From: Gammaproteobacteria bacterium
GTDB lineage: Bacteria; Pseudomonadota; Gammaproteobacteria; Eutrophobiales; Eutrophobiaceae
Reading direction: 5' to 3'
DNA: 64,000 nt
Assembly (NCBI GenBank): GCA_965205955.1
Contig: OZ242192.1
Location: forward strand, 2,376,796 to 2,440,795
The position numbers and the translations under genes are program-made. Shown one piece after another: positions 22,828 to 56,853 of the stretch; position 1 is the stretch's first letter, and each line of letters starts with the position of its first letter. The notes below the pieces were generated by a model, which searched no databases, was not told the DNA's origin, and saw only the letters and a program-made list of their open reading frames with translations.

Positions 22828-25800
22828 TCACACCGCCGCCCACGCATCCGCCATCAATTCCGCCTGTTCCAGCACCCTGTCGGCTGCCAGTTTCTGCTCA
22901 TCGGGCGGATAGCCGTATTTTTTCAGCAGCCGTTTAACGACGGTTCTCAGCTTTGCCCGTGCGCTCTCTTTTATCGTCCAGTCAATTGAGGTGTTCTTTT
23001 TCACGCTCTCGGCAAGGGTTTGCGCAAGCGCCCGCAAAGTGTCATCGGTCATCACTTCTTTTGCGCTCGCATTCATCGCCAGCGCGTCATAAAACGCGAC
23101 TTCATCCTCGGACAGCCCCATATCAACCGCCCGTTCATCGGCCGTTCTGATCTCTTTGGCCATCAGGATCAACTCCTCGATCACCTGCGCCGCCGTCAGC
23201 AGATTGTTTTTGTATCTCCGGATCGCATCCTCGAGCATCTCGGAAAACCTTCTGCTTTGCGCGAGGTTCTTTCGCGTTCGGGTCTGTATCTCATCGGCGA
23301 GGATTTTTTTGAGCAGTTCCAGCGCGAGGTTTTTGCGCTGCATTCCGCGTATCTCCTCGAGGAAATCATCGGACAGGATCGATATGTCGGGCTTTTTGAT
23401 TCCGGCCGCGTCAAAAATATCAATCACGCCGTCCACCACCACCGCCCGGTCAACGATCTGCCGGATTGCGCTTTCCATCTCCGCCCCGCTTACGCCGCTG
23501 CCGTCCCGTTCAAATTTTGTCAGCCGCGCCTTTACCGCCTGAAAAAATCCGACCTCCGCCTTTATCCCCATCGCACGCGGATCGGGAACCGAAAGCGCAA
23601 ACGCCTTCGACAGCAGCACGACCTCACGGGTAAACCTTTCCTTACCGTCCTCAAGACCGAGAATATATTCCTCGGCCTCCAGAATCAGCCTCATCTTTTC
23701 TCCGGCTTTGGCATCGGCGCGGAAGTATTGCCTGTAATCAAACCTGCCAAACATGGCGGCGACCACATCGTATTTTTCCAGCATCTTCGTAACCGCTGTT
23801 TCCTGCTCAAACGCCGGCGTTCCGCCGCCACCGTTTTTCGTGTATGCGCCCAGCGCCCGCTTCAAATCCGAGGCGATGCCAATATAGTCAACCACCAGTC
23901 CGCCGGGCTTGTCCTTGTAAACCCGGTTCACGCGGGCGATTGCCTGCATCAGGTTGTGTCCGCTCATGATCTTGTCAACATAGATGGCGCCCAGACACGG
24001 CGCATCAAAACCCGTCAGCCACATATCGCGCACAATCACCAGTTGCAACGGATCGGTCGGATCCTTGAATCGTTCCCCGAGCGCTTTCCGCTCCGACTTC
24101 GTGGTCGCGTGTTTGTGCCACTCGGCGGGGTCGCTCGAGGATGAGGTCATCACCACCTTTATTGCGCCCTTGTCTTTATCGTCATCGTGCCATTGCGGAC
24201 GCAGGGCGGTTATCTCAGCATACATCTCCACCGCAATGCGGCGGCTCGTGGCGACTATCATCGCCTTGCCTTCAAAGGCTTCCCGCCTGGTTTCAACGTG
24301 GCGCACAATATCCGCCACAACGGTTTTGATGCGGTCCTTGTGCCCGATAATCGCTTCCTGTTTCGTCCATTTGGCCTTGGCTTTTTCGATTGCGGTCGCC
24401 TCCTCGCTTTCGGTTATCTGCTCGATCTCGGCGTCCAGTTCTTCCTTCTCTTCCTGTTTGAGATGCACTTCGACAAGACGCGACTCATAGTAGATGGCCA
24501 CGGTCGCCTTGTCTGTAACCGCCTGCTCGATGTCGTAGACATCTATGTAGTTGCCGAAAACCGCCGGCGTTGAGATGTCTTCTTTCTCAATAGGAGTTCC
24601 GGTAAATCCGATGAAAGAAGATTCGGGAAGGGCATCTCTCAGGTATTTGGCAAAACCGTATTTTGTCCTCACCCCGTCTTTGACAAAATGGGTTTTTGCC
24701 CCGAATCCGTACTGGCTGCGATGCGCTTCGTCGGCGATGACAACGATATTCTTTCTATCCGATAGCAGTTCAAAATTTTCATTTCCTTCTTCAGGTGAAA
24801 ACTTCTGAATGGTCGAAAACACGATGCCGCCGCCCGCCGTTTTCAAAAGCCGCTTCAAATGCTCGCGGCTTTCCGCCTGCTTCGGCTCCTGGCGCAGCAG
24901 ATTTCTGCCCGCCGCAAAGGCCCCGAACAGCTGATCATCGAGATCGTTGCGGTCGGTAATCACAACGATGGTAGGGTTTTCCATTTCCCGATTGACAACC
25001 AGCAGTCCGGCATAAAAAACCATCGCAAGCGATTTTCCGCTGCCCTGCGTGTGCCACACAACGCCCGCCTTGCGGTCTCCTTTCGGCTGATCTTTGACGC
25101 CGGGCAGTCCGTATTTTTGCGGATCTTCCTCTACGGGCAAGCTGACCCTCTTTCCCCCGTGGGATGCTCTTATTGTGGATTCAACCGCTTTTTTAACCGC
25201 ATGGTATTGATGATAGGCGGCGATTTTCTTGATAGTGATGACTTTCGTCATGCTACCACCCTCTCTTCCGTCTCTCCCAGAGGGAGAGAAACTTTTTTGA
25301 GGCAGGGTGTTTTCAATTTTTTGGAGGACTTCCTGTATATTGTTCAGCAGGTCTTTGTTTTTAAATCGCAGGACGGTATTTCCGAGACTTTTCAGAAATT
25401 TGTCTCTTTTTGCGTCTTCTTGTGTCTCCGTATTGTGGACTTCACCGTCAAGTTCAATGATCAGTTTTTCGGAGTGGCAATAAAAGTCGGCGATATAATG
25501 CCCTATTTGGTGCTGTCTCCTGAATTTCAATCCGTTAAACCTTTTATTTCTAAGCAACTCCCAAAAAATTTCTTCCGTTTCGGTCTGCTTTTCCCGTAAC
25601 TCCTTCACCCGCTCAATCATCCCCGCAAACCGCATCCCCGCCCGATAATGCCCCTCCTCACTCTCCCCACCATTCCCAATCCCCCTCCTCTCCCTCTGGG
25701 AGAGGCCGGGAGAGGGTATCAACGGAGTTGATTCAGCAGGAATCAACTCCGTTGATTTCTCAAACACGGTAAAGTGCCGGATCAAATCAATCAGCACATT

Positions 25801-26514
25801 CGGGCGCAGCATTCCCCTGATAACAGTTTCAAGCCAGGGCGTTGTCGCAGGGTCTTCCCTTTCACCGTCCACGGTTTTCCAGGCCATAAAGCGGTTCCAG
25901 CCCGCCGTCAGTGAACCGGCCCTGGCATCGAGTCCGTCCGAGGCCACGAGCACACCGTTATAGCAGAACAGACTCGGTATCGTTTCTTTGTAGTTTTGCA
26001 GTTGATCGAACGCCTTTTGAACGGTTGCCTGTTCATCGGTCGGGTTTTTCAATTCAATCACCGCCATCGGCAGGCCGTTTATGAACACGACAACATCGGG
26101 GCGCTTGGTGGTGTTGTTTTCGGTAACCGTGAACTGATTGCAGACTGCAAGGTTGTTGTTGTGCGGATTTTTAAAGTCAATCAGCCGGACTCTCGCGCCG
26201 ACCGTTTCGCCGTCCTTTTGGTACTCTTCGGCGACACCTTCGACCAGCATTCGATAGAACTCCTGATTGCTTGCAATCAGGTTGTGACCGGAAAGGGAAA
26301 GCACCTGCCGTATCGCCTGCTGCCGCACACCGTTTGGAACCTTCGGATTAAGATTGTCAATCGCGGTTTTGAGGCGGTTGCGCAAAACCACATCGGCAAC
26401 GCCGTCTCTTTCGGTTTCCTGTTGTTCGGGGGGAATGTAGGCGTAACCCTGCTTTTCAAGCAGTTCTACCGCAAACTTTTCCACGTCCGATTCGTAGAGA
26501 GCGGTCATGTGCAA
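22828..26514 (-). CDS. hsdR: type I restriction enzyme R subunit HsdR, with a roughly 165-aa in-frame DUF559 insertion
   Basis: 1228 aa. The N-terminal nuclease/HsdR-N region runs ...LIDLIRHFTVFE. The SF2 motor has the AAYHQYHAV, GSGKS and DEAH-like motifs, and a C-terminal helical domain follows. Between aa 255 and 422 lies FWELLRNKRFNGLKFRRQHQIGHYIADFYCHSEKLIIELDGEVHNTETQEDAKRDKFLKSLGNTVLRFKNKDLL, a complete DUF559 (Vsr-like endonuclease fold) module. Confidence 0.9.
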   Translation of the reverse strand: MHMTALYESDVEKFAVELLEKQGYAYIPPEQQETERDGVADVVLRNRLKTAIDNLNPKVPNGVRQQAIRQVLSLSGHNLIASNQEFYRMLVEGVAEEYQKDGETVGARVRLIDFKNPHNNNLAVCNQFTVTENNTTKRPDVVVFINGLPMAVIELKNPTDEQATVQKAFDQLQNYKETIPSLFCYNGVLVASDGLDARAGSLTAGWNRFMAWKTVDGEREDPATTPWLETVIRGMLRPNVLIDLIRHFTVFEKSTELIPAESTPLIPSPGLSQRERRGIGNGGESEEGHYRAGMRFAGMIERVKELREKQTETEEIFWELLRNKRFNGLKFRRQHQIGHYIADFYCHSEKLIIELDGEVHNTETQEDAKRDKFLKSLGNTVLRFKNKDLLNNIQEVLQKIENTLPQKSFSPSGRDGREGGSMTKVITIKKIAAYHQYHAVKKAVESTIRASHGGKRVSLPVEEDPQKYGLPGVKDQPKGDRKAGVVWHTQGSGKSLAMVFYAGLLVVNREMENPTIVVITDRNDLDDQLFGAFAAGRNLLRQEPKQAESREHLKRLLKTAGGGIVFSTIQKFSPEEGNENFELLSDRKNIVVIADEAHRSQYGFGAKTHFVKDGVRTKYGFAKYLRDALPESSFIGFTGTPIEKEDISTPAVFGNYIDVYDIEQAVTDKATVAIYYESRLVEVHLKQEEKEELDAEIEQITESEEATAIEKAKAKWTKQEAIIGHKDRIKTVVADIVRHVETRREAFEGKAMIVATSRRIAVEMYAEITALRPQWHDDDKDKGAIKVVMTSSSSDPAEWHKHATTKSERKALGERFKDPTDPLQLVIVRDMWLTGFDAPCLGAIYVDKIMSGHNLMQAIARVNRVYKDKPGGLVVDYIGIASDLKRALGAYTKNGGGGTPAFEQETAVTKMLEKYDVVAAMFGRFDYRQYFRADAKAGEKMRLILEAEEYILGLEDGKERFTREVVLLSKAFALSVPDPRAMGIKAEVGFFQAVKARLTKFERDGSGVSGAEMESAIRQIVDRAVVVDGVIDIFDAAGIKKPDISILSDDFLEEIRGMQRKNLALELLKKILADEIQTRTRKNLAQSRRFSEMLEDAIRRYKNNLLTAAQVIEELILMAKEIRTADERAVDMGLSEDEVAFYDALAMNASAKEVMTDDTLRALAQTLAESVKKNTSIDWTIKESARAKLRTVVKRLLKKYGYPPDEQKLAADRVLEQAELMADAWAAV
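25252..25756 (-). mobile_element. in-frame DUF559 endonuclease-like module inside hsdR, bounded by inverted 19-bp hairpin elements
   Basis: Hairpin A (25271-25289) is tctctccc-aga-gggagaga. Hairpin B (25687-25705) is cctctccc-tct-gggagagg, roughly the reverse complement of A. An adjacent 16-bp perfect hairpin, ATCAACGGAGTTGATT-cagcagg-AATCAACTCCGTTGAT, lies at 25718-25756. The DUF559 coding sequence lies between A and B. Confidence 0.45.
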
Positions 26515-27749
26515 TTTTCCCAGAGCGACTTCACCGGCAGCGCATACAGGTTTTCGCCGAAACTCAACACGCTGTCACCGCAATACAGCAACGCGCCGCC
26601 GGCAAAACGCGCGCCCGTCGCGTCTTTGAGTTTGCGCAGCCCTTTGAAGTCCGCGCTCGTTACCGTGCCGGACGCCTTTACTTCTACACACGCCAAAGCG
26701 GTTGCGCCCCGTTGTATGACAATATCGACTTCGCTTCCGGCCCGGTCTCTGAAATGATAAAACGTATGGCGTTGACTATGTGCGCTCGCCTGTCGCCGCA
26801 GTTCCTGCAAAACAAATGTTTCCAGAATATGGCCGAACAATGACCGGTTGCCCGACAGGGTGGCTCGATTCAGGTTGAGCAAGGCGCAGATTACTCCCGT
26901 ATCGCCGAGGTGTATCTTTGGCGTTTTGACCAGCCGTTTCATGTAATTGCCGTGCCATGCGGGCGTTCTCTCCAGCAGAAACATCTTCTCGAGCAAGATC
27001 AGGTAACTGCGAATTGTCAGCCGGCTCAGTTGGAATGAAGACGCCAGACGGTTCACATTCAGAAGCTGTGCGGTGTGCGCCGCCGCCAGTTCGAGCAATC
27101 GAGGCAGGGTTTCAAGAGAATGAATCTCCGCAATCATCGGCGCATCTCTTTCAACCAGGGTTTCAATGTAGGTCTGATACCAGTTTGCCCGCCGTGCTGC
27201 CGAGCGTTGCAGCGCCGCCGGATAACCGCCCGCCACAACCCGGTCGATAATCTGCTCACCGCCCGGCGCGTCCTGGCGAATAGTGAAATTCGGAGCAAAC
27301 ATCGAATCCAGCAAGGTCGGCGGGGTTTGTTCAAGCTCGCTCTGTGAAAAAGGATGCAGCCTTATGATATCCGTCCGACCGGCAAGCGATTCTTTTATCC
27401 GCACCATTTGCAGCAGGTTCACCGAACCGGTCAATATAAAACGCCCCGCTTCACGGTTGCGGTCAACCGACAGCTTGATTGCGGGAAACAGCCCGGGGGC
27501 CAACTGCGCCTCATCCAAAATGACCCGTTCCGGCAGGGTGTTGACAAACCCGGCCGGGTCTTCCACGGCGTAACTGCGCGTGCTTTCATCATCGAGGGTG
27601 AAGTATTCGTAGCCCGCCGGCTTGCCAATCATCCGGGCAAATGTGGTCTTGCCGCACTGACGCGGCCCCTGTATCAGCACAACGGGGGAATCCTGCAATG
27701 CTTCCTGCAAGCGTGGGGCGGCATGGCGGGGGTAGATGGTGTTGTCCAT
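26505..27749 (-). CDS. AAA ATPase with a C-terminal DUF4143 domain (ATP-binding protein common in defence islands)
   Basis: Walker A VLIQGPRQCGKTTFARMIG; Walker B RVILDEAQ; 414 aa. The gene overlaps the hsdR start, suggesting an operon. Confidence 0.75.
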   Translation of the reverse strand: MDNTIYPRHAAPRLQEALQDSPVVLIQGPRQCGKTTFARMIGKPAGYEYFTLDDESTRSYAVEDPAGFVNTLPERVILDEAQLAPGLFPAIKLSVDRNREAGRFILTGSVNLLQMVRIKESLAGRTDIIRLHPFSQSELEQTPPTLLDSMFAPNFTIRQDAPGGEQIIDRVVAGGYPAALQRSAARRANWYQTYIETLVERDAPMIAEIHSLETLPRLLELAAAHTAQLLNVNRLASSFQLSRLTIRSYLILLEKMFLLERTPAWHGNYMKRLVKTPKIHLGDTGVICALLNLNRATLSGNRSLFGHILETFVLQELRRQASAHSQRHTFYHFRDRAGSEVDIVIQRGATALACVEVKASGTVTSADFKGLRKLKDATGARFAGGALLYCGDSVLSFGENLYALPVKSLWENCT

Positions 27750-27754
27750 GGCGT

Positions 27755-27892
27755 GGCTGATTGTTAGTCAAGTATGCGGCTAATTGTTAGTTTAGGGTAT
27801 GGCTGATTGTTAGTGTGGAGTGCGGCTGATTGTTAGTCAAGTATACGGCCAATTGCAAGCTCAGGGGGTGGATGATTGCAAGATCAGGGGGG
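27755..27892. repeat. six tandem 23-bp repeats in the promoter/5' region of the DUF4143-ATPase and hsdR operon
   Basis: The units are GGCTGATTGTTAGTCAAGTATGC, GGCTAATTGTTAGTTTAGGGTAT, GGCTGATTGTTAGTGTGGAGTGC, GGCTGATTGTTAGTCAAGTATAC, GGCCAATTGCAAGCTCAGGGGGT and GGATGATTGCAAGATCAGGGGGG. They begin 6 bp upstream of the ATG at 27749. On the minus strand each unit carries a TTGACT (-35-like) element. Confidence 0.7.
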
Positions 27893-27951
27893 CTTTCTAT
27901 CTTTGGGTCGTTCTACTGCGAGTTCTTCAACATCGGATTCGTGGCGGGCAG

Positions 27952-28803
27952 TTATTTCGACTTGTCAGCCAGGGGACGCGGATTTTTCAAGCCTTTTTTC
28001 TCGTCGGATTTCAGTTTTCTCGCCACTTTCTTGACATCTTCTTCGGGAGGCAGTTTTTCCGGTTGAATGCCGCGCTCTATCAGGGTCTTCCTTACGCTTT
28101 CGTTACTGGTGATGTGCTCATCGGATATTTCCTTTTCGCTGTGCATACGGTTTTTATCGACGTTGAATATCGTAATCTCCGTGGCAAAGTCTTTCGCCTT
28201 GAGAATGATGGTCGGGGCAAAATCCGCCAAAGCCCGGTTTTTCGGAACCTGCCATTTGTCTTTCATCTGTTCGGTGGTGTAACCGAACAATGCCTTGTCG
28301 CCTTTGGAGCGGATAATGCCGAAGTTTCGGTCGCTTCTCGTTTGTTCATAGATGACACCGGACAGCTCTTTTTCGGTGTCCGCCAGTTTTCGGCGAGCGG
28401 ACACCCTTTCGGCTTCCAGCATTTTCTGTTGGATAATCTCGAACTTTCTGGTCTGAGTGGCAAAGTAGGTTTGGGCTAAGGCGATTTCTTCCTTGCGCGG
28501 GTCGCCGTTTTGGGCGATGAGGTAGCAGGCGTAGCGGGTGAGCATGATGTCGGCCACTTCCCGTTGGCTGCCGGAGCCCAGGGAGACCATTTTGCTGGCG
28601 TCAACGAAATGGTCGGAAATTGTATGATTTGAGACCTCACAGGCGATTTTGGCTTTGTTGGCAACCTGTAAGAAGTTTCGCCAGTCTGTATAGCCCAGCA
28701 GACGCTGAAGGTCGCGGGCGAGCCAGAATTCAACACCGTTTTCGGTTTGGTTGGCGTGGGATTCAAAGTCTTTGGTGAGGGATTGTATGATTTCGGTTTT
28801 CAT
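27952..28803 (-). CDS. dinD: DNA-damage-inducible protein D (DinD/KilAC-domain family)
   Basis: VEFWLARDLQRLLGYTDWRNFLQVANKAKIACEVSNHTISDHFVD...LGSGSQREV...LTRYACYLIAQNGDP matches the E. coli DinD pattern. Confidence 0.7.
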   Translation of the reverse strand: MKTEIIQSLTKDFESHANQTENGVEFWLARDLQRLLGYTDWRNFLQVANKAKIACEVSNHTISDHFVDASKMVSLGSGSQREVADIMLTRYACYLIAQNGDPRKEEIALAQTYFATQTRKFEIIQQKMLEAERVSARRKLADTEKELSGVIYEQTRSDRNFGIIRSKGDKALFGYTTEQMKDKWQVPKNRALADFAPTIILKAKDFATEITIFNVDKNRMHSEKEISDEHITSNESVRKTLIERGIQPEKLPPEEDVKKVARKLKSDEKKGLKNPRPLADKSK

Positions 28804-28966
28804 TTTGGGGTTCCGATGGTTAAATGAGAATTGTGTCCGTGAATGGTTGTTATTTTACATTATAGGGGGTGGGTTCCCAAAACTGCAGTTTCGAGGTGGT
28901 AGACTTCGCCCTTATCAGAGGGTTCGACAGGTATGGTATCTTTACAAGTGGTGAGCAATCAAGAAT

Positions 28967-30280
28967 ATGATGAATAGCAACAAGGGAGGAAAAATGCGTG
29001 CCTTGCAGGATACATTTGGTCTTTTGGCAGACAAATTACTTTTGATGGAAGGAAATCCTAGCGCTTCTTGGGAAAGAAGTGCGGCAGACCTGATTCCACA
29101 GTTAATTCATATTCTTATCCAAGAGAAGTTCCCAGAGAATAGGAAGACAAAGCCACCTTTGATTTTTTCCGCGATTTCGGAGGATGAGAAAATTTTCCAT
29201 CCTTTCCGAAAACTTAAATTTCAGCTCATTCATAGTGAGTCGTTCACTATTCGCTCAGATAAAAAATTACATGTGGACCAAAAACTCGCCATTTTCACTA
29301 TCCCTATGCTGTATTCAGTTCCTGAATTTTCCCATCAATTGTCACCACGCACCCAAAAAAATCTTTCAGATTCTCCAAATCAGGATCTTGAAACTTCTGA
29401 CCTGTTGCGTTTTGAACATCCTATTGATCCAAGTGAAGTAAAGGAGGTTGCCATTGAGTTTACGGTACAAGGACATCTGGGGGGTGGCTTTTGCACATTC
29501 ATTTATGAAAATCCTTTTGATGAAAATCCACACAAAAAACTTACTCTGAACGAATGGTTGGAACAACCCGTTCTATCGGTAAACGGGCATATGTTCACAA
29601 TAGAAGAAATTATCAAGGAAGTGAGAAACAAAATCGCAGTACATCGGTCTGCTCCAGAAAGCATTAACAAGAAATCATTTATTTACAATACGAGATACAT
29701 TAACGCTTGCGGGGCTTATTGGTCTTATTTTATTTTCTTCTGTGCGCTCCATATCATCACTATAATTCAACAAAAGATAAAAACTGAAATGCGACTCGAT
29801 ATTGATGATAATTTTGCAAAAATTGCTGAATCGAAAAGACCCGATCTAACCACTTTTGGATGGGAAACTAAAGATTGGGGGGGGATAGAATCTTATCTTG
29901 TTCTTTCTGATAATGTTGAATTTATCGCCAATGAGGATATGTCAAAAAACACAACCAAGATATCGTTTTTCTCTTTCAGATTAGAGAGTCAAATGGGACT
30001 ACAGGTTTACTCCATCCCTAGCGTGTTTTTTAGTTTGAAAGCGCAAAAAGAAAAGGAAAGCATAGATGAAGAGAATTGTTTATATTTTAATTTGAAGGAA
30101 AAGAAATGTGGTTTTGGTCTGCATTTCAGAACCACTGCCGATGCGTGGTGTGAATTCGTCAGGGATGAAAAGAATATATTTACGGCAAGGCTTGTCACGT
30201 TCACCGATTATCCCATAAAGGGGAGTATATTCTATAATGACGTTAAAAATACCATGCGCATATTATTTAGCTTTTTGTAA
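28967..30280 (+). CDS. hypothetical protein, 437 aa, AT-rich, with no recognisable motif; the only plus-strand gene in the R-M island
   Basis: Long intact ORF in a roughly 33% GC segment (28.8-31.7 kb), convergent with the DUF3644 gene. No Walker, nuclease or HTH motif was recognised by eye. Confidence 0.45.
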   Translation: MMNSNKGGKMRALQDTFGLLADKLLLMEGNPSASWERSAADLIPQLIHILIQEKFPENRKTKPPLIFSAISEDEKIFHPFRKLKFQLIHSESFTIRSDKKLHVDQKLAIFTIPMLYSVPEFSHQLSPRTQKNLSDSPNQDLETSDLLRFEHPIDPSEVKEVAIEFTVQGHLGGGFCTFIYENPFDENPHKKLTLNEWLEQPVLSVNGHMFTIEEIIKEVRNKIAVHRSAPESINKKSFIYNTRYINACGAYWSYFIFFCALHIITIIQQKIKTEMRLDIDDNFAKIAESKRPDLTTFGWETKDWGGIESYLVLSDNVEFIANEDMSKNTTKISFFSFRLESQMGLQVYSIPSVFFSLKAQKEKESIDEENCLYFNLKEKKCGFGLHFRTTADAWCEFVRDEKNIFTARLVTFTDYPIKGSIFYNDVKNTMRILFSFL

Positions 30281-30782
30281 AATCTAATCAAGGGAATGCT
30301 GCACGAGTTGTCATACCGCAATGAAAATGTCATATTGATAACGTATCATCTTCTGCCCTTCGTTGCTCCATTGAAGTTGTTGACGTGTCGCTATCCACTT
30401 CAACCCACCGCACCTCATGGCCACCATGAGAGATATGCAGATTGCTATCCAACCATTCACGTATTTCCTATCGTTATGGTATCCGGCACAGGGGTGAGAA
30501 ACAGTCGTTCAATTCGTCGCCGCTTCTGTGCCTTCATAGTCGCAAAAACTCCGCGTGGATGAGTCCTGATAGCAGCCTCCTTTATCGTCATGTTCTTCTC
30601 CATAACACATTCGCAGATTTCAACACGCTTCATTTCTGCTATACTTACATTCTGTCCTCTTGTGGTATTCCATGCTTCATATTGAAGCACAACTAAGGGG
30701 GCTTTTTCACGTTGTCTTAATACGACATTTTCATTGTGGTATGACAGTTAACTACATAATTCCCAAATATTTTGTCATGATG

Positions 30783-31754
30783 CTAAGTATATTCTGATCT
30801 ATTGTTTTCACAGTGATTTTTCACGAACGTTAACCATGAATGATACCAGTACCATGTTTTGGCAACTTTTGTTCCAAATCCTTTTGATGGATTTTTTGCA
30901 TTTTCTTTTTGCCATAATTTCGTATGTTGATGTATTTTGAATTTGTTAAATCCATTTCTTTGCATTTCTTTGCAAATTTCACCTGGCAAATATTTCATCT
31001 TTTCCTTCTCTATGACATATTCCTTTTTAAGCCCTTTTGCTATATCAGAATCTGGCGAAATGAACTCAATCACTCTATCCGCTTGTCCTTTTCGATTAGC
31101 CGTTCTTAAGACAAATAAAACTCTGTATGAAAACCTACTATCATTGAAATATCCCTCCGACAAACCTTGATCAAAATCTTGAATATAAGAAGAGATATTT
31201 TGGGGCAAATCTTTGTAATCACGTAAGTCAGCGACTTGACCTTCGCTCAGAGAAGAAAATTGTAGGCTAAAGGACAGGTGTTTTTCGATGCCATCTTTCT
31301 TTGGAAATAATTTTTTAAGATATGTATTGTAATTCAAACAACAGGATTGAAAACGAGCATTTAAAAAATCATCGATTCTTGTTGTCATTCTATGTTCTAT
31401 TTCGTGTCTTAGCCCAATTAAAAATTTTAAATTTAATGTCGTAATTTTGTCAATTGGAGATTTTTCACTATCCAAGCATTTCTCCAATTCCCAGTATTTA
31501 TAGGCATTTTTTTTTGTAGTGGAAAATTTTCTCCGCCTTCCATTTATTTTAAAATATTTGTATTCTATATTCTTGTCATGATAATAGGCATGTAGCAAAT
31601 AAGTCCAAGCAATAATTGAAAGAACGATGAATGACTCTGATTTAAATTGCATATTTGGGTTGTTGAATATTTGAACGGCCGCCAGCATGCCCTCTTTTGA
31701 CTTGCGAAGCTGTTCATTCTTTATAGAGCCAAATTTTCTCGTTCTGCTAGCCAT
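30783..31754 (-). CDS. DUF3644-like protein, commonly found next to hsdS
   Basis: The N-terminus MLAAVQIFNNPNMQFKSESFIVLSIIAWTYLLHAYY fits the DUF3644 N-terminal pattern. The gene overlaps the hsdS stop by 8 bp. Confidence 0.5.
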   Translation of the reverse strand: MASRTRKFGSIKNEQLRKSKEGMLAAVQIFNNPNMQFKSESFIVLSIIAWTYLLHAYYHDKNIEYKYFKINGRRRKFSTTKKNAYKYWELEKCLDSEKSPIDKITTLNLKFLIGLRHEIEHRMTTRIDDFLNARFQSCCLNYNTYLKKLFPKKDGIEKHLSFSLQFSSLSEGQVADLRDYKDLPQNISSYIQDFDQGLSEGYFNDSRFSYRVLFVLRTANRKGQADRVIEFISPDSDIAKGLKKEYVIEKEKMKYLPGEICKEMQRNGFNKFKIHQHTKLWQKENAKNPSKGFGTKVAKTWYWYHSWLTFVKNHCENNRSEYT

Positions 31755-32961
31755 GATATGAAAATGGACTTATTCTCGCTTTTCCACTCATCAACTTCGG
31801 CAACAAAATATCGCGCAGTTTTTTGAGCGTGCGGATTTGAGATTTATTCTTCCGATTTTTATCAAAAACCGATTCTACAGTATCTTGAAATTTATAAACT
31901 AATTCATGCGGATACTTGGGAAAATCAATCGATACTAAATTAGTCTGATTTATTTTCGGTTGTACTGCCCCAGTAATGTATCTCTCAATATTTAATTTCA
32001 AAAGAAAGTGCCAGATAAAAAAGTTATCGTAAGGTTTTTTTGCTTTAAGCACATGGGTATGATTATTCACCCAAAACTTTCCACTAGTATATTGTAAAAC
32101 AGGATACCCTTCACCTGCCTTAACCGTCCCATCTTCGGCCATTAGAATGTATTCGCCTTCGAAAATATAGTCGTTTATGTAATCCATAACTTGAGCAGCT
32201 CCGTAGTATGGATACAATGAATCTCCATCCTTCATTTTTTGCCTTTCTATTTTGGAAAGCGGGATTCTTTTGCTGTCAAAAATCTCTACCACATCCCCTA
32301 GCTTTCCAAACTCCCACCCTTCATTCGCATCTTCCACAAACCACTTGCGAAACAATGCCTGTGCCATATCTTCAAGTGTTTTGTTCTGGCGGTGGAGCAG
32401 CTCTATTTTGTCGTCCAGCGATGATAACACTTCGGCAATGGCTTTTTGTTCGGGAAGTGGGGGGAGAAAAAATTTGTAATCTTTAATTGTTTTTGGTGAT
32501 GTGTGCTTTATTGATGTTCCACTTGCTGCGCCAACTATAAACCAGTGATATTCACCAGTACGCATTAGCCAATAAATAAAATTTCTATCAACCTCTTTTG
32601 ATTCAAATTGTAATAACCCTATCCGCTGATTGTGTAAATACATTTCATCGTTTTTATTATTTTTGGGAACTTTTGCTGAAAAACCAAGAGTGTCTCCTTG
32701 TTTGCTCAAATCAGTCATTGTTACAATAACATCACCTTCTTTCAGAATATAATCTTGTGGAATTTCACCTCTAAAATATTTTAACTTTGATGATTTGAAT
32801 CCTCCACCTATATGAAAATTTCCAGGTGTAACCAAAATATTGTTGTTTGTTTCATCTGTAATATATTTCCCCTTGAAAGCATAGCCGTGTTTTATATCAA
32901 CTAAATCCCCCAACCTAACCTCGCGCCACCCGTGCCGTTCTTTTTGCTCCATCCCGCTCAT
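31747..32961 (-). CDS. hsdS: type I restriction-modification specificity subunit HsdS, with two target-recognition domains
   Basis: Conserved central and C-terminal coiled-coil LPPLPEQKAIAEVLSSLDDKIELLHRQNKTLEDMAQALFRKWF, with two TRD-like halves; 404 aa. Confidence 0.85.
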   Translation of the reverse strand: MSGMEQKERHGWREVRLGDLVDIKHGYAFKGKYITDETNNNILVTPGNFHIGGGFKSSKLKYFRGEIPQDYILKEGDVIVTMTDLSKQGDTLGFSAKVPKNNKNDEMYLHNQRIGLLQFESKEVDRNFIYWLMRTGEYHWFIVGAASGTSIKHTSPKTIKDYKFFLPPLPEQKAIAEVLSSLDDKIELLHRQNKTLEDMAQALFRKWFVEDANEGWEFGKLGDVVEIFDSKRIPLSKIERQKMKDGDSLYPYYGAAQVMDYINDYIFEGEYILMAEDGTVKAGEGYPVLQYTSGKFWVNNHTHVLKAKKPYDNFFIWHFLLKLNIERYITGAVQPKINQTNLVSIDFPKYPHELVYKFQDTVESVFDKNRKNKSQIRTLKKLRDILLPKLMSGKARISPFSYHG

Positions 32962-33284
32962 TGCTCCGAATATATCTGCTCTTTCGTCAACAGTGTTTTC
33001 GCTTTCTCTTCGATGTGCCGTCTCATCGGCGGGTAATCTACAAAGTTGAACACCTGCACATCCACCTTGTATGGCAACGAACTCTCATCAAACAAAGTCC
33101 ACAAACGGTCGGTGGTCGCTCCATCGATGTCGCCGTAAAGCACCAAGTCAATATCGGAATAACTTTTGTAGTTTCCCGTTGCCCTTGAGCCGAACAAGGA
33201 TGCTTTTTCAATGCCGGGGCAATGTTCGCGGAGAATTTTTGCGATACCGCCAATTTGCCGTGCGCTCAATCCATGCGTGGACAT
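32958..33284 (-). CDS. mntA: nucleotidyltransferase (MNT-domain antitoxin of a HEPN/MNT pair)
   Basis: GSRATGNYKSYSDIDLVLYGD carries the GS...D.D polymerase-beta NTase motif; 108 aa. Confidence 0.8.
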   Translation of the reverse strand: MSTHGLSARQIGGIAKILREHCPGIEKASLFGSRATGNYKSYSDIDLVLYGDIDGATTDRLWTLFDESSLPYKVDVQVFNFVDYPPMRRHIEEKAKTLLTKEQIYSEQ

Positions 33285-33288
33285 TGTC

Positions 33289-33702
33289 TCAGAACTGCTC
33301 TCCTAAAACTTCGTAAAGTTCTCCGAAACATGCAAGGTATCTTTTGCTGATCTGCTCTAACGCCTCCTCAAATTTTTTGAAGTCGTAGGTGTGGCTCATT
33401 TTATTACGCACATCCAACGCCGTCATCCAGCCCTCGCCGTCGTGTATGAGATTTGCGGCAATCGCCTCTTTGATAATGGCGCGGGGAGTAACCTGCCCAA
33501 ACACAACATTGTTGTATTCCAGATAGTCCTTTGCCGCCTTCCATGCAAGTTCCATACAGTATTCAAAGCGTTGGATCATGCCCTCTTTTTCCAACTGTGT
33601 CATAGACCCATCACTGTATTTTTCGTTGGCCTCTTGTAGAAGAGTGTATGCTCTACTGAAATTGTTAAAGCGATATTTCCAGCGCGGTTTTTCTTCGCTC
33701 AT
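33289..33702 (-). CDS. hepT: HEPN-domain nucleotidyltransferase substrate-binding protein (HepT-like toxin, HI0074 family)
   Basis: MSEEKPRWKYRFNNFSRAYTLLQEANEKY...RFEYCMELAWKAAKDYLEY...ALDVRNKMSHTYD is the HEPN Rx4-6H-like region. The gene lies 4 bp upstream of mntA. Confidence 0.75.
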   Translation of the reverse strand: MSEEKPRWKYRFNNFSRAYTLLQEANEKYSDGSMTQLEKEGMIQRFEYCMELAWKAAKDYLEYNNVVFGQVTPRAIIKEAIAANLIHDGEGWMTALDVRNKMSHTYDFKKFEEALEQISKRYLACFGELYEVLGEQF

Positions 33703-34231
33703 GTTCTGTTCTCCAGTCGTTAATGTCGGTAATCTGTAAATACATTCGCCGCTCACCGGCGCGAATAGAACGAACCCGTTCCAGAAGTTCCTTGAAATAA
33801 TCCCTACCAAAGACCCGCGTACCCTGCTTGAGCCGTTGGTCATTCATGGCAAAGCCTTCGATGATATATTCTTTCAAAACCTGAGTCGCCCAGATGCGAA
33901 ATTGTGTGGCACGCCTGGAGTTGACCCGATAGCCAACAGCAATGATGGCGTCGAGATTGTAGAACTTCGTTTTGTAACGCTTTCCATCTCCGGCAGTAAG
34001 TTCCAAAATGGAACTTACTGATTTTTCCGGCAATTCACCACTCTTAAAGATGTTTCCGAGATGCTTGGTTATGGCGGGCCTTTGAACCCCGAACAATCGC
34101 GCAATATTTTCCTGCGTCAGCCACAATGTCTCATCTTGTAGCGTAACCTCGAGCCGCACCTCACCGTGAGGCGTGGTGTAAAGGATAAAATCGGCATTGC
34201 CGGAGGACGGCGATTTATTTTTCATACTCAA
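33665..34231 (-). pseudogene. rhuM: virulence protein RhuM family (Fic/DOC-like), 3'-truncated at the hepT-mntA insertion
   Basis: LYTTPHGEVRLEVTLQDETLWLTQENIARLFGVQRPAITKHLGNIFKSGELPE...GYRVNSRRATQFRIWATQVLKEYIIEGFAMNDQRL...RRMYLQITDI matches the first roughly 180 aa of the roughly 330-aa RhuM proteins. It then diverges (NDWRTEHERRKTALEISL*) and overlaps the hepT start. Confidence 0.65.
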
Positions 34232-35891
34232 TTTTGCCCAGGTTCTCCAAGATCCGCTTGTTCAACTCCGCCTCTTCTTTTATCTGCCCTTCAAATTCCG
34301 CTTTGAGTGCGGTAAATCTCTCTTCAAAGTCAAAATCATCCTCGGTTTCCGCCAGCCCCACATAGCGCCCCGGACTCAGCACATAGTCCAACTCTGCGAC
34401 CTTTGCCGTCTTGACCGAGGCGCAAAAGCCGGGGATGTCTTGATATGGGATGCCCTCACCTTCTTTTCCTCTCTCAGAGGGAGAGGAAGGTTGGTGATCT
34501 TTTCCTTTCTCAGGGGAAGGTTGATGATCTTTTCCTCTCCCTTTGGGAGAGGCTAGGTGAGGGTCCCTCCTCCACTGGTGGTAGGTGTTGACAACCCTGG
34601 CTATATCTTCATCTGAAAACTCCCGGGTGCGGCGGTTGATCAAATGCCCCAACTCGCCCGCGTCTATGAACAGGATCTCATCCTGGCGTTTCCGGTCGCC
34701 GTTGTAGCCGTGCCGTTTGTTGGAGACAAACCACAGGCAGGCGGGGATTTGCGTGTTCAGGAACAGTTTTGCCGGCAGATTGACAACGCAGTCCACAATG
34801 CCGGCATCGATGATGTTTTTGCGGATGACGTCTTCGTTGGATGATTTGGAGGTGAGCGAGCCTTTTGACAGCACGAAACCGGCCACGCCTTTGGGCGAGA
34901 GGTGGTGTATGAAGTGCTGCACCCAGGCAAAGTTGGCGTTGCCGGTTGGCGGAATGCCGTATTTCCATCGGCTGTCGCCTTCTAATTGTTTGCCGCTCCA
35001 GTCGCTGTCGTTGAAGGGCGGGTTGGCGAGGATGAAATCGGCTTTCAAGTCGGGATGGGCGTTGTTCAGGAATGAGCCTTCGTTGTTCCATTTCACCTGC
35101 CCGCCGTCTATCTGGCGAATGGCCAGGTTCATCCGGCAGAGGCGGTAGGTGGTCTGGTTGCTCTCCTGTCCGTAGATGGAGATGTTGTCGATGTTGCCCT
35201 GGTGCTGTTTGACGAATTTCTCACTCATCACGAACATGCCGCCGCTGCCGCAGCAGGGGTCGAACACCCGGCCCTTGTACGGCTCTATCATTTCCACCAG
35301 CAGTTTTACAATCGAGCCCGGGGTGTAGAACTGGCCGCCTTTTTTGCCTTCGGTGAGGGCGAACTGGCCGAGAAAATATTCATAGACTTTGCCGAGCAGG
35401 TCTCTCGATTTCGCGGCTTCATCGCCGAGGGCGATGTTGCCGACCAGGTCGATCAACTCGCCAAGCGTTGCGGATGCGACGTTCGGCCTGGAGTATACTT
35501 TCGGCAGAATGCCTTTCAGGGTGTTGTTCTCTCTTTCTATGGCTTCCATGGATTCGTCTAAAATCTTGCCGATGGTTTCCTGTCTCGCTTGTGCTTTGAT
35601 GTGGCTCCATCTTGCGTTCGGCGGCACCCAGAAAACGTTTTCCGCTCTGTATTCGTCCGGGTCTTCGGCGTCGGCGTGTTGATATTCCCCTTCGCCGGCG
35701 GTGAGTCTGGCGTGCAGGGTTTCAAAGGAGTCGGAGATGTATTTGAGGAATACCAGGCCGAGCACAACGTGTTTGTATTCCGCTGCGTCTATGTTGTTGC
35801 GCAGCTTGTCCGCGGCTTTGAATAGCTGGTTTTCAAAATTGCCGGCTTTTTCGGCGTGGTTTTCGGTCGTGGTCTTGCTGTCGGTCAACAT
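34215..35891 (-). CDS. hsdM: type I restriction-modification DNA methyltransferase subunit HsdM (N6-adenine), with a low-complexity in-frame insertion
   Basis: HsdM N-domain AADKLRNNIDAAEYKHVVLGLVFLKYISD; SAM motif FDPCCGSGGMF; catalytic NPPFN; 558 aa. Inserted SPKGRGKDHQPSPEKGKDHQPSSPSERGKEGEG at 34458-34560. Confidence 0.9.
   Translation of the reverse strand: MLTDSKTTTENHAEKAGNFENQLFKAADKLRNNIDAAEYKHVVLGLVFLKYISDSFETLHARLTAGEGEYQHADAEDPDEYRAENVFWVPPNARWSHIKAQARQETIGKILDESMEAIERENNTLKGILPKVYSRPNVASATLGELIDLVGNIALGDEAAKSRDLLGKVYEYFLGQFALTEGKKGGQFYTPGSIVKLLVEMIEPYKGRVFDPCCGSGGMFVMSEKFVKQHQGNIDNISIYGQESNQTTYRLCRMNLAIRQIDGGQVKWNNEGSFLNNAHPDLKADFILANPPFNDSDWSGKQLEGDSRWKYGIPPTGNANFAWVQHFIHHLSPKGVAGFVLSKGSLTSKSSNEDVIRKNIIDAGIVDCVVNLPAKLFLNTQIPACLWFVSNKRHGYNGDRKRQDEILFIDAGELGHLINRRTREFSDEDIARVVNTYHQWRRDPHLASPKGRGKDHQPSPEKGKDHQPSSPSERGKEGEGIPYQDIPGFCASVKTAKVAELDYVLSPGRYVGLAETEDDFDFEERFTALKAEFEGQIKEEAELNKRILENLGKIEYEK
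34458..34560. repeat. three tandem roughly 36-bp in-frame repeats inside hsdM built from the CCTCTCCC-N3-GGGAGAGG hairpin element
   Basis: cctctctc-aga-gggagagg (34468-34486); cctttctc-agg-ggaagg, degenerate (34504-34520); cctctccc-ttt-gggagagg (34534-34552). The same hairpin family flanks the DUF559 insert in hsdR. Confidence 0.7.
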
Positions 35892-53624: not shown

Positions 53625-54602
53625 TTATTCATTAATTTTTTCAAGTTTTTTCTTTTTAATAAAGAATGTATTAAATCCATATTTATTTATCCTGATCCGT
53701 AATGCTTTAAGGATGAAATTTACTGGAGTTAAATCTCCAATATAATACCAATAAAACTTGTGCTCGTATGTTTTTTTACAAAAATCTATATAAAGTATTT
53801 TATATTTGATTCTTCTTTTTTGATACTCCTGTATTCCAACACAACCTGGAGTATTAATTTCTTCTTTTCTCCATAAAAATCTGTAGAGCCAGGGTTTATA
53901 ATGTAAATGTAAAAAAATAATCTTATTTTCAGGAAGATGACCTTTAAAAAAGTTATTCCATTCTACTCCAAGACGATAAAAACTAAAAAGTCCTTTTATT
54001 CTTAAAAAGAAAAAAACTATTTCATCTTCTTCAAAATAGGAAATTTTCGATAAATCCCTGTACAGGTTTATAAATTTTTCCTTAAACTTTTTCTTTGCCA
54101 AATTTTTATTGTTGTACACTACAACTCCTGAATTCATCCAGAATTCTTCCAAATCTTCTTCTTTCATACCCAATGTCTTCAAGAGTTTTGTATATCCTGT
54201 ATTTTTTGCTCTACGTGCTTTCTGCAAAGCAAGCTCTTCTACTTCTTCTATTACATTCATAGGTACTTTACCTATGCAAAAAATATCTCCATCAAGAACA
54301 ATTGAATAGGCAAAACCTTTTTTATAGAAGGCTTCCGGAATGGCACAACTCCAAAAACATTCATTTGGCAATATAAATTCTTTGGAATCCCCAAAAATAT
54401 TTTTCAGATCAATTTTCAAAACTCCTAAATTGTATTCTTCAATAACTCTTTTGTATTTGTCACTGATATTTCCGCAGACAAAATACTCAAAGTTTTTATT
54501 TTCCTCGTTCTTCTCTCTTACAGACAGCAGCGTAATAATTGCCTTATAGACATAACTGTCATTCGTTGAAATTACACAAACAGCAACTTTATCTTTTGAC
54601 AT
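53625..54602 (-). CDS. GT8-like glycosyltransferase, paralogue 2 of 4
   Basis: Nearly identical to paralogue 1 over the first roughly 200 aa and in C-terminal type. Confidence 0.55.
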   Translation of the reverse strand: MSKDKVAVCVISTNDSYVYKAIITLLSVREKNEENKNFEYFVCGNISDKYKRVIEEYNLGVLKIDLKNIFGDSKEFILPNECFWSCAIPEAFYKKGFAYSIVLDGDIFCIGKVPMNVIEEVEELALQKARRAKNTGYTKLLKTLGMKEEDLEEFWMNSGVVVYNNKNLAKKKFKEKFINLYRDLSKISYFEEDEIVFFFLRIKGLFSFYRLGVEWNNFFKGHLPENKIIFLHLHYKPWLYRFLWRKEEINTPGCVGIQEYQKRRIKYKILYIDFCKKTYEHKFYWYYIGDLTPVNFILKALRIRINKYGFNTFFIKKKKLEKINE

Positions 54603-54756
54603 CTTACATTTCTCCTTTTCAATTTTGTTATCTGCTTCATTAAAAAAACTCCATTCGCGCCAACCCCGTAGCCACAGGACGATTGGCAATATCTTAGTCC
54701 GGTTTATTTATGCGACGCTATAGTAGTAACCTGAGCTGTCGCCGATTATGCCCACC

Positions 54757-55707
54757 TTACGATAAAAAATCTCTCACTATTTTTTTTAGCGAGAAAAAGT
54801 CAAGTAATCTTACCAAAGATTGTCTTATGATTTTCTTTATTGGTATTACATCTCCGATGTAATACCAATAAAACTTATGCCCATATATTTTTTTGCAAAA
54901 ATTAATATAAAATTCTCTATATTTTATCCTTCTTTTTTTATTTATCTCCACCCCAATATCATTTGAATCAGGCAGTTTCCCCCATAAAAATCTGTAACGC
55001 CAAGGCTTATAATGTAAATGTAGAAAAATAAGCTCACTGTCAGGAAGGATGGTGTCCAATGCACTGTTCCATTTTAGTCTAAGATCATAAAAATTAAAAA
55101 GTCCTTTCATTCTTAAAAAGAAAAAAACCGTTTCATCTACTTCAAAATAGGAAATTTTCGATAAATCCCTGTACAGGTTTATAAATTCTTCCTTAAATTT
55201 TTTCCTTGTTAAATTTTTATTATTAAAAATTATAGTTCCTGAACACATCCAACATTCTTCAATATCTTTTTGTCTAGAATTAAATTTCTTTATAATTTTT
55301 CGCAATGTAAGCTCGTTTGTTCTTTTCGCCAAAGCAAGCTCTTCTACTTCTTCTATTACATTCATAGGCACTTTACCTATGCAAAAAATATCTCCATCAA
55401 GAACAATTGAATAGGGAAAACCTTTTTTATAGAAGGCTTCCGGAATGGCACAACTCCAAAAACATTCATTTGGCAATATAAATCCTTTGGAACTTCCAAA
55501 AATATTTTTCAGATCAATTTTCAAAACTCCTAAATTGTATTCTTCAATAACTCTTTTGTATTTGTCACTGATATTTCCACAAACAAAATACTCAAAGTTT
55601 TTATTTTCCTCGTTCTTCTCCCTTACAGACAGAAGTGCAATAATTGCCTTATAAACATAACTGTCATTCGTTGAAATTACACAAACAGCAACTTTATCTG
55701 TTGACAT
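54757..55707 (-). CDS. GT8-like glycosyltransferase, paralogue 3 of 4, with an alternative C-terminal module
   Basis: The N-terminal roughly 150 aa match paralogues 1 and 2; the C-terminal half is of a second type (…CWMCSGTIIFNNKNLTRKKF…IPIKKIIRQSLVRLLDFFSLKKIVRDFLS). An A8 tract lies near the 3' end. Confidence 0.55.
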   Translation of the reverse strand: MSTDKVAVCVISTNDSYVYKAIIALLSVREKNEENKNFEYFVCGNISDKYKRVIEEYNLGVLKIDLKNIFGSSKGFILPNECFWSCAIPEAFYKKGFPYSIVLDGDIFCIGKVPMNVIEEVEELALAKRTNELTLRKIIKKFNSRQKDIEECWMCSGTIIFNNKNLTRKKFKEEFINLYRDLSKISYFEVDETVFFFLRMKGLFNFYDLRLKWNSALDTILPDSELIFLHLHYKPWRYRFLWGKLPDSNDIGVEINKKRRIKYREFYINFCKKIYGHKFYWYYIGDVIPIKKIIRQSLVRLLDFFSLKKIVRDFLS

Positions 55708-56816: not shown

Positions 56817-56853
56817 CTTACATTTCTTCTTTTCAATTTTGTTATCTTCCTTA

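Follow-up and report, generated by a model that had tools for sequence, protein, structure and literature searches.

An in-frame, hairpin-bounded DUF559 nuclease in a type I restriction gene, hsdR, and its relatives in restriction-modification genes: a probable homing-endonuclease-like element

The 64,000-nt stretch of a gammaproteobacterial genome analysed here (hereafter the window; contig OZ242192.1 of assembly GCA_965205955.1, positions 2,376,796 to 2,440,795) carries the genes of a type I restriction-modification system, hsdM, hsdS, and hsdR, on one strand with accessory genes between them. Its hsdR gene contains, in the same reading frame, an insert that encodes a nuclease of the DUF559 family between two hairpins (Table 1). 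The HsdR protein matches NCBIfam TIGR00348 (hsdR; E = 6e-182), and its Pfam domains are HSDR_N (residues 6-205), DUF559 (300-402), SWI2_SNF2 (433-705), and T1RH-like_C (893-1221), with T1R_D3-like also among the matches. The type I HsdR layout is complete, with an N-terminal nuclease, an SF2 motor, and a C-terminal helical domain, and HsdR retains intact copies of its own nuclease motif (D138...E152-x-K154) and of the Walker A motif, GSGKS.

The insert comprises 176 residues between ...IRHFTVFE (ending at E250) and KKIAAYHQY (starting at K427), for a net gain of 159 residues, and the hsdR frame is open throughout. The initial annotation had described a complete DUF559 module inserted in frame, of about 165 residues at 25252-25756; the module and its frame are borne out, and the limits, although close, are moved slightly outward by the alignments (Table 1). 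Within HsdR, the insert separates the endonuclease domain from the motor domain. In an alignment with EcoR124I HsdR, its position corresponds to about residue 266, at the end of the match to the N-terminal endonuclease region of that protein, whose endonuclease domain ends near residue 260 (structure 2W00). The GC content of the nuclease core is 0.40-0.42, against about 0.55 for hsdR.

Table 1. Features of the type I locus in the window, and junction foldbacks at related loci
Feature	Position	Strand	Description and basis
hsdR	22828..26508	minus	ATG at 26508, 1226 aa; open reading frame (ORF) list and translation, Pfam, NCBIfam
Whole in-frame insert	25231..25758	minus	residues 251-426 (K251 to I426), 528 nt; protein and DNA alignments
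DUF559 (Vsr-like PD-(D/E)XK) nuclease core	25303..25650	minus	116 aa, HYRAGMRF to KIENTL; Pfam PF04480
Terminal inverted repeat, N-terminal side of core	25687..25717	minus	holds CCTCTCCC-N3-GGGAGAGG; translated ..PSPGLSQRERR..; repeat and pattern search
Terminal inverted repeat, C-terminal side of core	25258..25289	minus	holds TCTCTCCC-N3-GGGAGAGA; translated ..FSPSGRDGREGG..; repeat and pattern search
Junction foldback	25718..25756	minus	perfect 17-bp stem, 5-nt loop
hsdS	31747..32961	minus	ORF translation with HsdS central motif; no insert here
hsdM	34215..35891	minus	558 aa; ORF, homologues carry PF02384 and PF12161
Hairpin-only derivative in hsdM	34452..34565	minus	about 3 tandem units, no nuclease; hairpins at 34468-34486 and 34534-34552
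Foldback, L008			TTGTGTTTGAACG-AAAGGC-CGTTCAAACACAA; outer-arm host codons IVFER
Foldback, L005 and L006			T:A variant of the L008 foldback; outer-arm host codons IVFER
Foldback, L019			TTGAAAGTACCCTGC-GGGCG-GCAGGGTACTTTCAA; outer-arm host codons IESTLR
Foldback, L045 and L053			TTCCGGTTGAG-TTCA-CTCAACCGGAA; outer-arm host codons IPVE
Foldbacks, hsdM site ~395 (L038/L052, L046, L043, L036)			TTGCCCGCG.., TTTCCCGCG.., TTCGCCGGA.., TCTGCCGGA..; each pairs perfectly with its own inverted copy
Foldback, 3' junction of L055			TAAACAGAACCGT-GCTGAT-ACGGTTCTGTTTA; outer-arm host codons TVLFI

The match of the insert to PF04480 scores 127.5 bits against a cutoff of 20.6 (E = 2.6e-37) and covers profile positions 6-108 of 109, so that the profile search proposed with the initial annotation returned a strong and complete DUF559 domain. 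The core residues D55, E66, D68, H72, and D79 are present in the window and invariant in at least 50 of 51 embedded copies (those lying within other genes) and in 32-33 of 33 others, and N98 is likewise kept in at least 50 of the 51 embedded copies, the window's included. By analogy with Vsr and I-Bth0305I, the D...E-x-D-G-x-x-H...D residues are presumed to be catalytic. The dN/dS ratios of the embedded cores are 0.05-0.2 in informative pairs (the cores of the window and L004, a close relative, differ by about five substitutions, too few for an estimate), a pattern of substitution which indicates that the nuclease is under purifying selection. An N-terminal motif, xYRGGxxFxG, is found in 46-50 of the 51 embedded copies versus 12-20 of the 33 others.

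The AlphaFold2 model of the insert has pLDDT values above 90 in the core and below 50 in the hairpin-encoded flanks, which are predicted to be disordered. A DUF559 protein of Neisseria (3HRL) matches the core in sequence (E = 5e-20), and the target-normalised TM scores from Foldseek are 0.85 for 3HRL, 0.75 for 3R3P, the catalytic domain of I-Bth0305I (probability 1.0), and 0.46 for 1VSR. On the reading favoured below, the nuclease domain would be looped out of HsdR and tethered by disordered, hairpin-encoded peptides rich in Pro, Gly, Ser, Arg, and Glu.

On the DNA level, the core is bracketed by the plus-strand hairpins TCTCTCCC-AGA-GGGAGAGA at 25271-25289 and CCTCTCCC-TCT-GGGAGAGG at 25687-25705. 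They agree with the two mutually inverted 19-bp hairpins described initially. Over the inner 17 nt, each is the 100% reverse complement of the other, and the inverted repeat reaches about 30 nt (25258-25289 versus 25687-25717) with a 2-nt indel. When the pattern YCTCTCCC-N3-GGGAGAGR was searched for with at most two mismatches, four matches were found in the window versus 0.03 expected, and none of 100 shuffles reached four; chance hairpins are thereby ruled out. The two further matches, at 34468-34486 and 34534-34552, lie in hsdM, which places all four within two type I genes, while no further DUF559 copy is present in the window. The anatomy of the element is an inverted-repeat hairpin, a Vsr-like DUF559 nuclease, and the same hairpin inverted.

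A third hairpin, at 25718-25756, had also been reported, with a 16-bp stem; the hairpin is there, but its stem is one base pair longer. Its outer arm is the sequence adjoining the host junction (KSTELI codons), and its inner arm is an inverted copy of the same. It is, in other words, an inverted duplication of the junction sequence, and it lies outside the inverted repeat of the element.

The segment is an insertion, and the nearest orthologues do not have it. In a search for HsdR orthologues that covered 5.8 billion proteins, the filled relatives P0001 (100% identical) and P0002 (98%, 1227 aa) were followed by many HsdR proteins of 1038-1077 aa that carry no DUF559, the first of which (P0003-P0006, 1065-1066 aa) are 87-89% identical. 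A homologous DUF559 insert reappears at exactly the same position and with similar flanks in P0118 (60% identical, 1213 aa). The comparison of orthologues suggested at the outset thus shows the insertion absent at 87-89% identity and present in relatives at 98% and 60%. The same insert, 99% identical, is found in L004 (2.63 Mb), and five further genomes, one of them archaeal, are filled at the same hsdR codon position.

The empty HsdR proteins have a 17-residue linker (e.g. PTRYEDPKTGSVTVRPE) between ...HFTVFE and KKIAAYHQY. Compared with the DNA of the empty allele L001, the window is 93% identical in the last 60 nt before the junction and 88% identical in the first 60 nt after it, and the 51-nt linker of the empty alleles is wholly replaced; the insertion is therefore not a clean addition. 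The junctions in the window (KSTELIP / ..VITIKK) resemble those in L010 (KSIELIP / ..VVTIKK) and L002 (RSTKLTP / ..VTTIKK), with SMTKVITI in the window versus QVVTI in L010 in the right-hand linker. Hence the linker now present is of the kind seen in other filled alleles, and the sequence farther out on both sides matches the empty allele; no close donor is among the sampled alleles, and part of the linker is foldback. The empty linkers are homologous across several HsdR clades (K-S/T-x-x-E/x-D-L/P-K-T-G-...-T-I/V-K-K), and their middle part is missing from the filled alleles, so that a precise loss of the insert could not recreate the empty linker. There is no palindrome at the insertion site in the empty allele L001 and no direct target-site duplication at the junctions in the window, where inverted copies of the host flank are found instead.

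In a different part of the gene, 450-900 nt downstream of the junction (23400-23850), the motor part of the window's hsdR is 96-100% identical to that of L001, versus about 89% otherwise. This high local identity suggests that the hsdR lineages of the window and L001 may have recombined recently.

The hairpin-only derivative in hsdM amounts to 38 in-frame residues between TYHQWR and YQDIPGFC, and its repeated unit is CCTCTCYC-N3-GGGAGAGG. In this genome, accordingly, two loci within 64 kb are occupied, the hsdR copy encoding a complete nuclease and the hsdM copy none. In the 95%-identical L004, the array has one hairpin unit fewer, an in-frame difference of 36 nt. The HsdM orthologue P0245 (87% identical) has a 5-residue loop, KTDGS, at the array site, and the orthologues P0243, P0244, P0246, and P0247 have arrays of 27-43 residues there. 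Elsewhere, the same hsdM site is taken by a loop of 4-7 residues, by a hairpin-only insert (12 of the 23 loci examined), or by a full DUF559 element (L015, L016, L027, P0121, P0124, and P0141).

To place the element in a wider context, genomes were scanned at one genome per species; 584 stretches were confirmed, and the best 80 loci were analysed. The host halves were located by tblastn with the HsdR and HsdM of the window, and the site classes given below rest on the tblastn coordinates. In 48 of the 80 loci, 49 elements are flanked on either side by hsdR or hsdM halves that share one frame, and about ten more elements lie at contig ends, are frameshifted, or are in hsdS. In all, hsdR, hsdM, or hsdS is the host of at least 58 copies. 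With L002 and the window included, 48 of 51 elements are free of stop codons over the whole interval spanned by the upstream and downstream host matches. There are about eight recurrent sites in hsdR, hsdM, and hsdS. Those in hsdR are after residue 250 (the window's site), just before Walker A, near residue 106 in the nuclease domain, and near residue 573; those in hsdM are near residues 395, 441, and 263; and the one in hsdS is in the central conserved region (L032, L033, L041, L047, L010, and L061). A single hsdR, in L045 (4600-8730), has two DUF559 elements, near residues 106 and 573. No common motif was seen next to the different insertion sites when the host sequences were inspected by eye. 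The lower-similarity loci without the N-terminal xYRGGxxFxG motif are mostly standalone genes.

The closest relatives of the insert protein (45-64% identical) are very often fused to HsdM fragments, HSDR_N, or the HsdR motor. A protein search of 1.84 billion representatives gave 24,549 matches at E ≤ 1e-3, and domains were tallied for the best 150. Among these 150 are 64 proteins of at least 330 aa, in which Methylase_S occurs 26 times, N6_Mtase 12, Eco57I 9, MmeI_Mtase 7, HSDR_N 5, TaqI_C 4, and Type_ISP_C 2, besides a few housekeeping enzymes. The taxa of the analysed loci include Brocadiaceae, Verrucomicrobiota, Nitrospinota, Acidobacteriota, Cyanobacteria, Elusimicrobia, and archaea of the Methanophagales. 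The family therefore occupies recurrent loop or linker sites in restriction-modification genes across phyla, and hairpin-only remnants mark the same sites. A phage origin was considered and rejected, as only 12 weak relatives (at most 44% identical) were found in a viral collection. With the closest orthologues empty and the same anatomy recurring in dozens of unrelated genomes, the proposal that a hairpin-bounded element entered hsdR without breaking its frame is supported.

Some further observations concern the hosts. Three DUF559 domains occur in one 377-aa protein and two in one 1214-aa protein (P0363 and P0364). DUF559 with hairpins is found in frame in an MmeI/Eco57I-like enzyme, after the motif TCFETFPFP, and in an EPSP-synthase-NUDIX reading frame, where the flanks are direct and not inverted repeats (both among L065:2448-5693, L069, and L080:3600-5768). 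Two HsdR orthologues, P0115 and P0064, have in-frame low-complexity expansions without DUF559 at alignment columns of about 480-550 (e.g. repeated GTAQPQP); these are bounded by STxRA and GDRKAGV, where DUF559 has its second common insertion site in hsdR.

Upstream of the core, 33 of the 51 elements have a perfect hairpin of which one arm is homopyrimidine, and 26 of the 51 have such a hairpin downstream. The innermost stem is CTCTCCC in 46 of 66 hairpins and CCCTCCC in 12, the loop is 3-5 nt long, and the family consensus is CCCTCTCCC-N3-GGGAGAGGG. Canonical hairpins are read in all three phases, as SPSGRG, LSQRER/PSQREG, or PLPxGEG peptides, and it is therefore the DNA that is conserved. The loops are purine-rich upstream (32 of 40) and pyrimidine-rich downstream (23 of 26), from which it follows that the element ends are mutually inverted, as in the window. 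Of the 186 canonical hairpins in the loci, 125 have a DUF559 core no farther than 350 nt away. The density of solo hairpins, those canonical ones at a distance of more than 350 nt from every core, is 0.327 per kb in hsdR and hsdM versus 0.044 per kb elsewhere in the loci (7.4-fold). The same hairpins also flank standalone intergenic DUF559 copies in other genomes. The initial annotation had suggested a search of the genome for further hairpin copies and for standalone DUF559 genes with the same flanks; within the window, the former are found in hsdM and the latter are absent. Annotations of 'DUF559 domain-containing protein' are enriched in predicted programmed inversions with an odds ratio of 14 (PMC9881135), a signal that the inverted hairpin ends could produce.

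At many junctions, a perfect inverted copy of the adjacent host sequence is found, with host coding sequence as the outer arm (Table 1). All seven alleles filled at the window's hsdR site have a left-junction foldback of 6-17 bp, in which pairing is kept by changes on both arms. The foldback in L005, L006, and L008 is 12-13 bp long and derives from their own IVFE codons, and in L002, L007, and L010 only a short version is present. By a crude statistic with simple window definitions, which missed some cases visible by eye, a perfect stem of at least 7 bp is present at 33% of the left junctions (p = 5e-6) and 12% of the right junctions (p = 8e-5), versus 2.3% of host coding windows. These perfect inverted host copies suggest a hairpin or fold-back intermediate on the cut ends of the target.

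A neighbour-joining tree of 84 cores is structured largely by insertion site, with switches. The alleles filled at the window's hsdR site all fall in one clade, beside which stands L009, an element at hsdM site ~395 that shares the termini of that clade. At hsdM site ~395 and the site before Walker A, the correlation between core identity and host identity is weak (about 0.45), and in some pairs, including ones with hosts at 84% and cores at 56%, the hosts are 76-84% identical while the cores are only 50-58% identical, for which separate invasions of the same site are the best explanation. Filled hsdR genes of the window's site type are found in L007 (a Methanophagales archaeon), L005 and L006 (Brocadiaceae), L008 (Verrucomicrobiota), and L010 (Nitrospinota), with hosts 76-92% identical to one another. 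Such similar filled genes in different phyla and an archaeon indicate that gene and element move together between distant lineages.

Taken together, these results make it rather probable that the insert is a selfish, hairpin-bounded element akin to homing endonucleases, which is expressed as a looped-out domain of its host protein and decays to solo hairpins. An element of this kind would have no start signals of its own in hsdR and would be translated by read-through in the host frame, and this in-frame reading would both express the nuclease and spare the host gene, the role that splicing has for introns and inteins. The nuclease would cut an empty allele beside a conserved host motif, and repair would copy the element with a few flanking codons from the filled allele. 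During insertion, the cut target ends may pass through a hairpin-capped or snapped-back intermediate. Spread would occur when restriction-modification genes meet by horizontal transfer, and now and then the element would jump to a new site, in the gene it occupies or in one nearby. The core would be lost when the two self-complementary hairpins recombine, and solo hairpin arrays, such as the one in the window's hsdM, would be left behind.

Several points weigh against such a homing-type history. The core and host identities at the window's hsdR site are correlated (r = 0.85); this fits an element travelling with the gene across phyla, but fits long vertical co-inheritance equally. The nearest sampled core is 68% identical to that of the window, and no recent donor is seen. 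The core, at 116 aa, has no recognised DNA-binding module that would give it long-site specificity for about eight targets, and the copies seen in this organism are two, both within the 64-kb window. The restriction of the family to restriction-modification subunits, with all three subunits of one complex among them, is also predicted by a functional tether. To our knowledge, junction foldbacks are no signature of homing by homologous repair, and we know of no DUF559 protein of this clade for which cleavage, homing, or transposition has been shown.

The initial annotation had left the choice between a selfish nuclease and an added nuclease function; the evidence narrows it toward a mobile origin, and both alternatives are kept in play. 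According to the second alternative, DUF559 was recruited, perhaps via a mobile element, and kept as a second nuclease tethered to the restriction-modification complex that aids defence or self-control. It might, for instance, cleave or nick DNA bound by the methyltransferase core, or work on DNA that is unmethylated or mismatched. Strong purifying selection and intact, conserved, presumably catalytic residues would be expected of such a domain, as would the preserved host frame (48 of 51 elements), the co-divergence of core and host in the window-site group, and hosts that are almost solely restriction-modification enzymes (the three type I subunits and enzymes of the Eco57I, MmeI, and ISP types). 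The DUF559 protein VsrA of Caulobacter, moreover, damages DNA only when the cognate methylation is missing (PMC12907096). An added function, however, does not account for hairpins that are conserved, inverted, and read in three phases, for the foldbacks at the junctions, for the solo remnants, or for the identical architecture of the standalone intergenic copies. The patchy distribution among close orthologues, the two inserts in one hsdR (L045), and the three DUF559 domains within 377 aa are also difficult to reconcile with it, and HsdR already has an intact nuclease motif of its own. We therefore regard it as unlikely, though a serious contender, and it is compatible with a mobile origin.

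The other explanations are less probable still. If the hairpin repeat itself were the mobile unit, moved in trans by an unrelated transposase like a miniature inverted-repeat transposable element (MITE) or REP sequence, with DUF559 as a passenger or merely a flanked gene, one could account for the existence of DUF559-free arrays whose unit number varies between near-identical genomes; in-frame palindromic elements without coding capacity are, in addition, known from Rickettsia (PMC10969869). This is improbable, considering that two thirds of the canonical hairpins (125 of 186) are near a DUF559 core, that hairpins and DUF559 are paired across many phyla in embedded and standalone copies alike, that the two ends are always inverted relative to each other around the nuclease gene, that no transposase gene lies alongside, and that the motif is limited in the 64-kb window to two type I genes. 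An ancestral fusion of HsdR and DUF559, lost repeatedly without any mobility, was disfavoured on account of the empty closest orthologues with their conserved linker. It would fit the similar identities of cores (66-69%) and hosts (61-65%) between the window and the other alleles at its hsdR site, yet no insert is present in relatives at 87-89% identity, the 17-residue linker is homologous among the empty alleles of several clades and its middle part is missing when the site is filled, the family uses about eight different sites in three genes, and the base composition of the core is foreign to the host gene; its probability is accordingly very small. Removal of the insert from protein or mRNA is hardly conceivable at all. 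The insert is in frame and carries a nuclease, as inteins do, but no Hint or intein domain is found by Pfam, there is no Cys, Ser, or Thr at K251 or K427, and no His-Asn at the insert end (I426), on which grounds an intein was rejected. An intron or other known RNA was rejected as well, with no Rfam match at the gathering thresholds in the whole window, and the lack of stop codons in 48 of 51 elements would not be required of an intron.

The homing-type element favoured above has its nearest counterparts in the Vsr-like homing endonucleases, such as I-Bth0305I and the 'fractured gene' enzymes of Dassa et al. (2009), which are encoded in group I introns, between the halves of split inteins, or by free ORFs that interrupt their host gene (PMC2677866; PMC3239194). 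Vsr, DUF559, and 3R3P were placed in one PD-(D/E)XK group by Steczkiewicz et al. (PMC3424549). As a homodimer, I-Bth0305I recognises a pseudopalindrome adjacent to its insertion site, and hairpins next to the endonuclease ORF have been noted for this family (PMC2677866; PMC3239194). The likeness consists in the nuclease fold and in the use of defined sites in conserved genes, with presence and absence among alleles. Those enzymes, however, have NUMOD or helix-turn-helix DNA-binding modules and phage replication genes as hosts, whereas the hsdR element has no intron or intein, is translated within the host protein, ends in hairpin terminal inverted repeats, and resides in cellular restriction-modification genes. 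All three of the usual housings of homing endonucleases, the self-splicing intron, the intein, and the free ORF with its own signals, are absent here, the element being read in the host frame. It may be filed, accordingly, with the known Vsr-like homing endonucleases, its hairpin-ended in-frame form in restriction-modification genes being a variant of selfish elements of the homing-endonuclease type.

One recent precedent for an unspliced, frame-preserving homing insertion is the ShiLan domain of a phage DNA methylase, an insertion that is actively homing (PMC11855218). Like the hsdR element, it is neither intron nor intein, keeps the host frame open, is predicted to loop out, and evolves in a homing-like manner (PMC11855218). 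Its endonuclease, however, is of the HNH type and encoded in a different frame, so that its in-frame reading is a by-product (PMC11855218), whereas in the hsdR element the endonuclease is in the host frame and of a different family, the ends are hairpins, and the hosts, which span phyla, are type I and type IIG systems of cells. Inteins, too, are in-frame, nuclease-carrying selfish insertions in conserved genes that are expressed by host translation; the hsdR insert differs in having no splicing blocks or splice-junction residues, and judged by these it would be expected to stay in the mature protein. The palindromic elements of Rickettsia (PMC10969869) similarly consist of short in-frame palindromic DNA tolerated as peptide loops, which the hsdM arrays resemble, but they encode no enzyme and hit unrelated metabolic genes (PMC10969869). 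The present family, in contrast, has a nuclease-bearing form, restriction-modification hosts, and inverted instead of direct target duplication. With MITEs the element shares terminal inverted repeats (about 30 nt, imperfect, with a perfect 17-nt core), and its ends are inverted family-wide. The same domain occurs in standalone DUF559 proteins such as NGO0050 of N. gonorrhoeae (PDB 3HRL) and VsrA of Caulobacter (PMC12907096), which are not part of a larger protein and are considered to be repair or Vsr-like enzymes; the embedded clade is distinguished from them by the extra N-terminal xYRGGxxFxG motif and by its embedding in other proteins.

No published description was found of DUF559 elements with hairpin ends in restriction-modification genes, or of the junction foldbacks, in a literature coverage that is incomplete, with most subscription journals outside it. 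A more far-reaching claim can be made tentatively, and we think it somewhat doubtful on balance: that the family is an undescribed class of mobile element, with the hsdR insert as the first of its members to be recognised, namely a nuclease gene with hairpin terminal repeats, carried as an unspliced in-frame domain in bacterial and archaeal restriction-modification enzymes, which would insert via a hairpin or fold-back intermediate with inverted target-site duplications, by a mechanism apart from intron and intein homing and from known transposition, and which may alter the enzymes it invades.

If these interpretations are correct, the tolerated loop-out domain would be a third way, besides introns and inteins, for homing-type elements to spare their host gene. 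They would also explain thousands of annotations of 'DUF559 / endonuclease domain-containing' proteins and the odd low-complexity loops of the PSPxGRGxGEG kind in restriction-modification proteins. Restriction enzymes of the type I, type IIG, and ISP kinds would stand out as a preferred habitat of a mobile element, with a bearing on the evolution and exchange of defence islands, and the junction palindromes would provide a testable clue to an insertion chemistry new for bacterial elements. The insertion sites show where HsdR, HsdM, and HsdS accept large domains without a break of frame, and the pair of nuclease and hairpin could serve as a compact sequence-specific or structure-specific tool.

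Some minor features of the window remain to be described. Accessory genes are wedged between hsdR, hsdS, and hsdM (26505-33843), including a pair of small ORFs at 32958-33843. Two of the accessory ORFs, 414 and 283 aa long, correspond in length and order to the AAA_14/DUF4143 and Bro-N genes of L004, while the gene content of the interval between hsdS and hsdR differs from that of L004, which carries FRG/TPR and GmrSD genes there. A perfect hairpin with a 12-bp stem, CAGTAAGTTCCA-AAA-TGGAACTTACTG, lies at 33994-34020 in the ORF 33665-34231 that adjoins hsdM. Farther away, three tandem paralogous genes (354, 345, and 347 aa) are found at 53625-56906. They are separated by two identical hairpins with 17-bp stems (TTTATTGGTATTACATC...; 54836-54872 and 55942-55978), which are unrelated in sequence to the DUF559 hairpins and whose 3-nt loops are flipped relative to each other (TCC and GGA).

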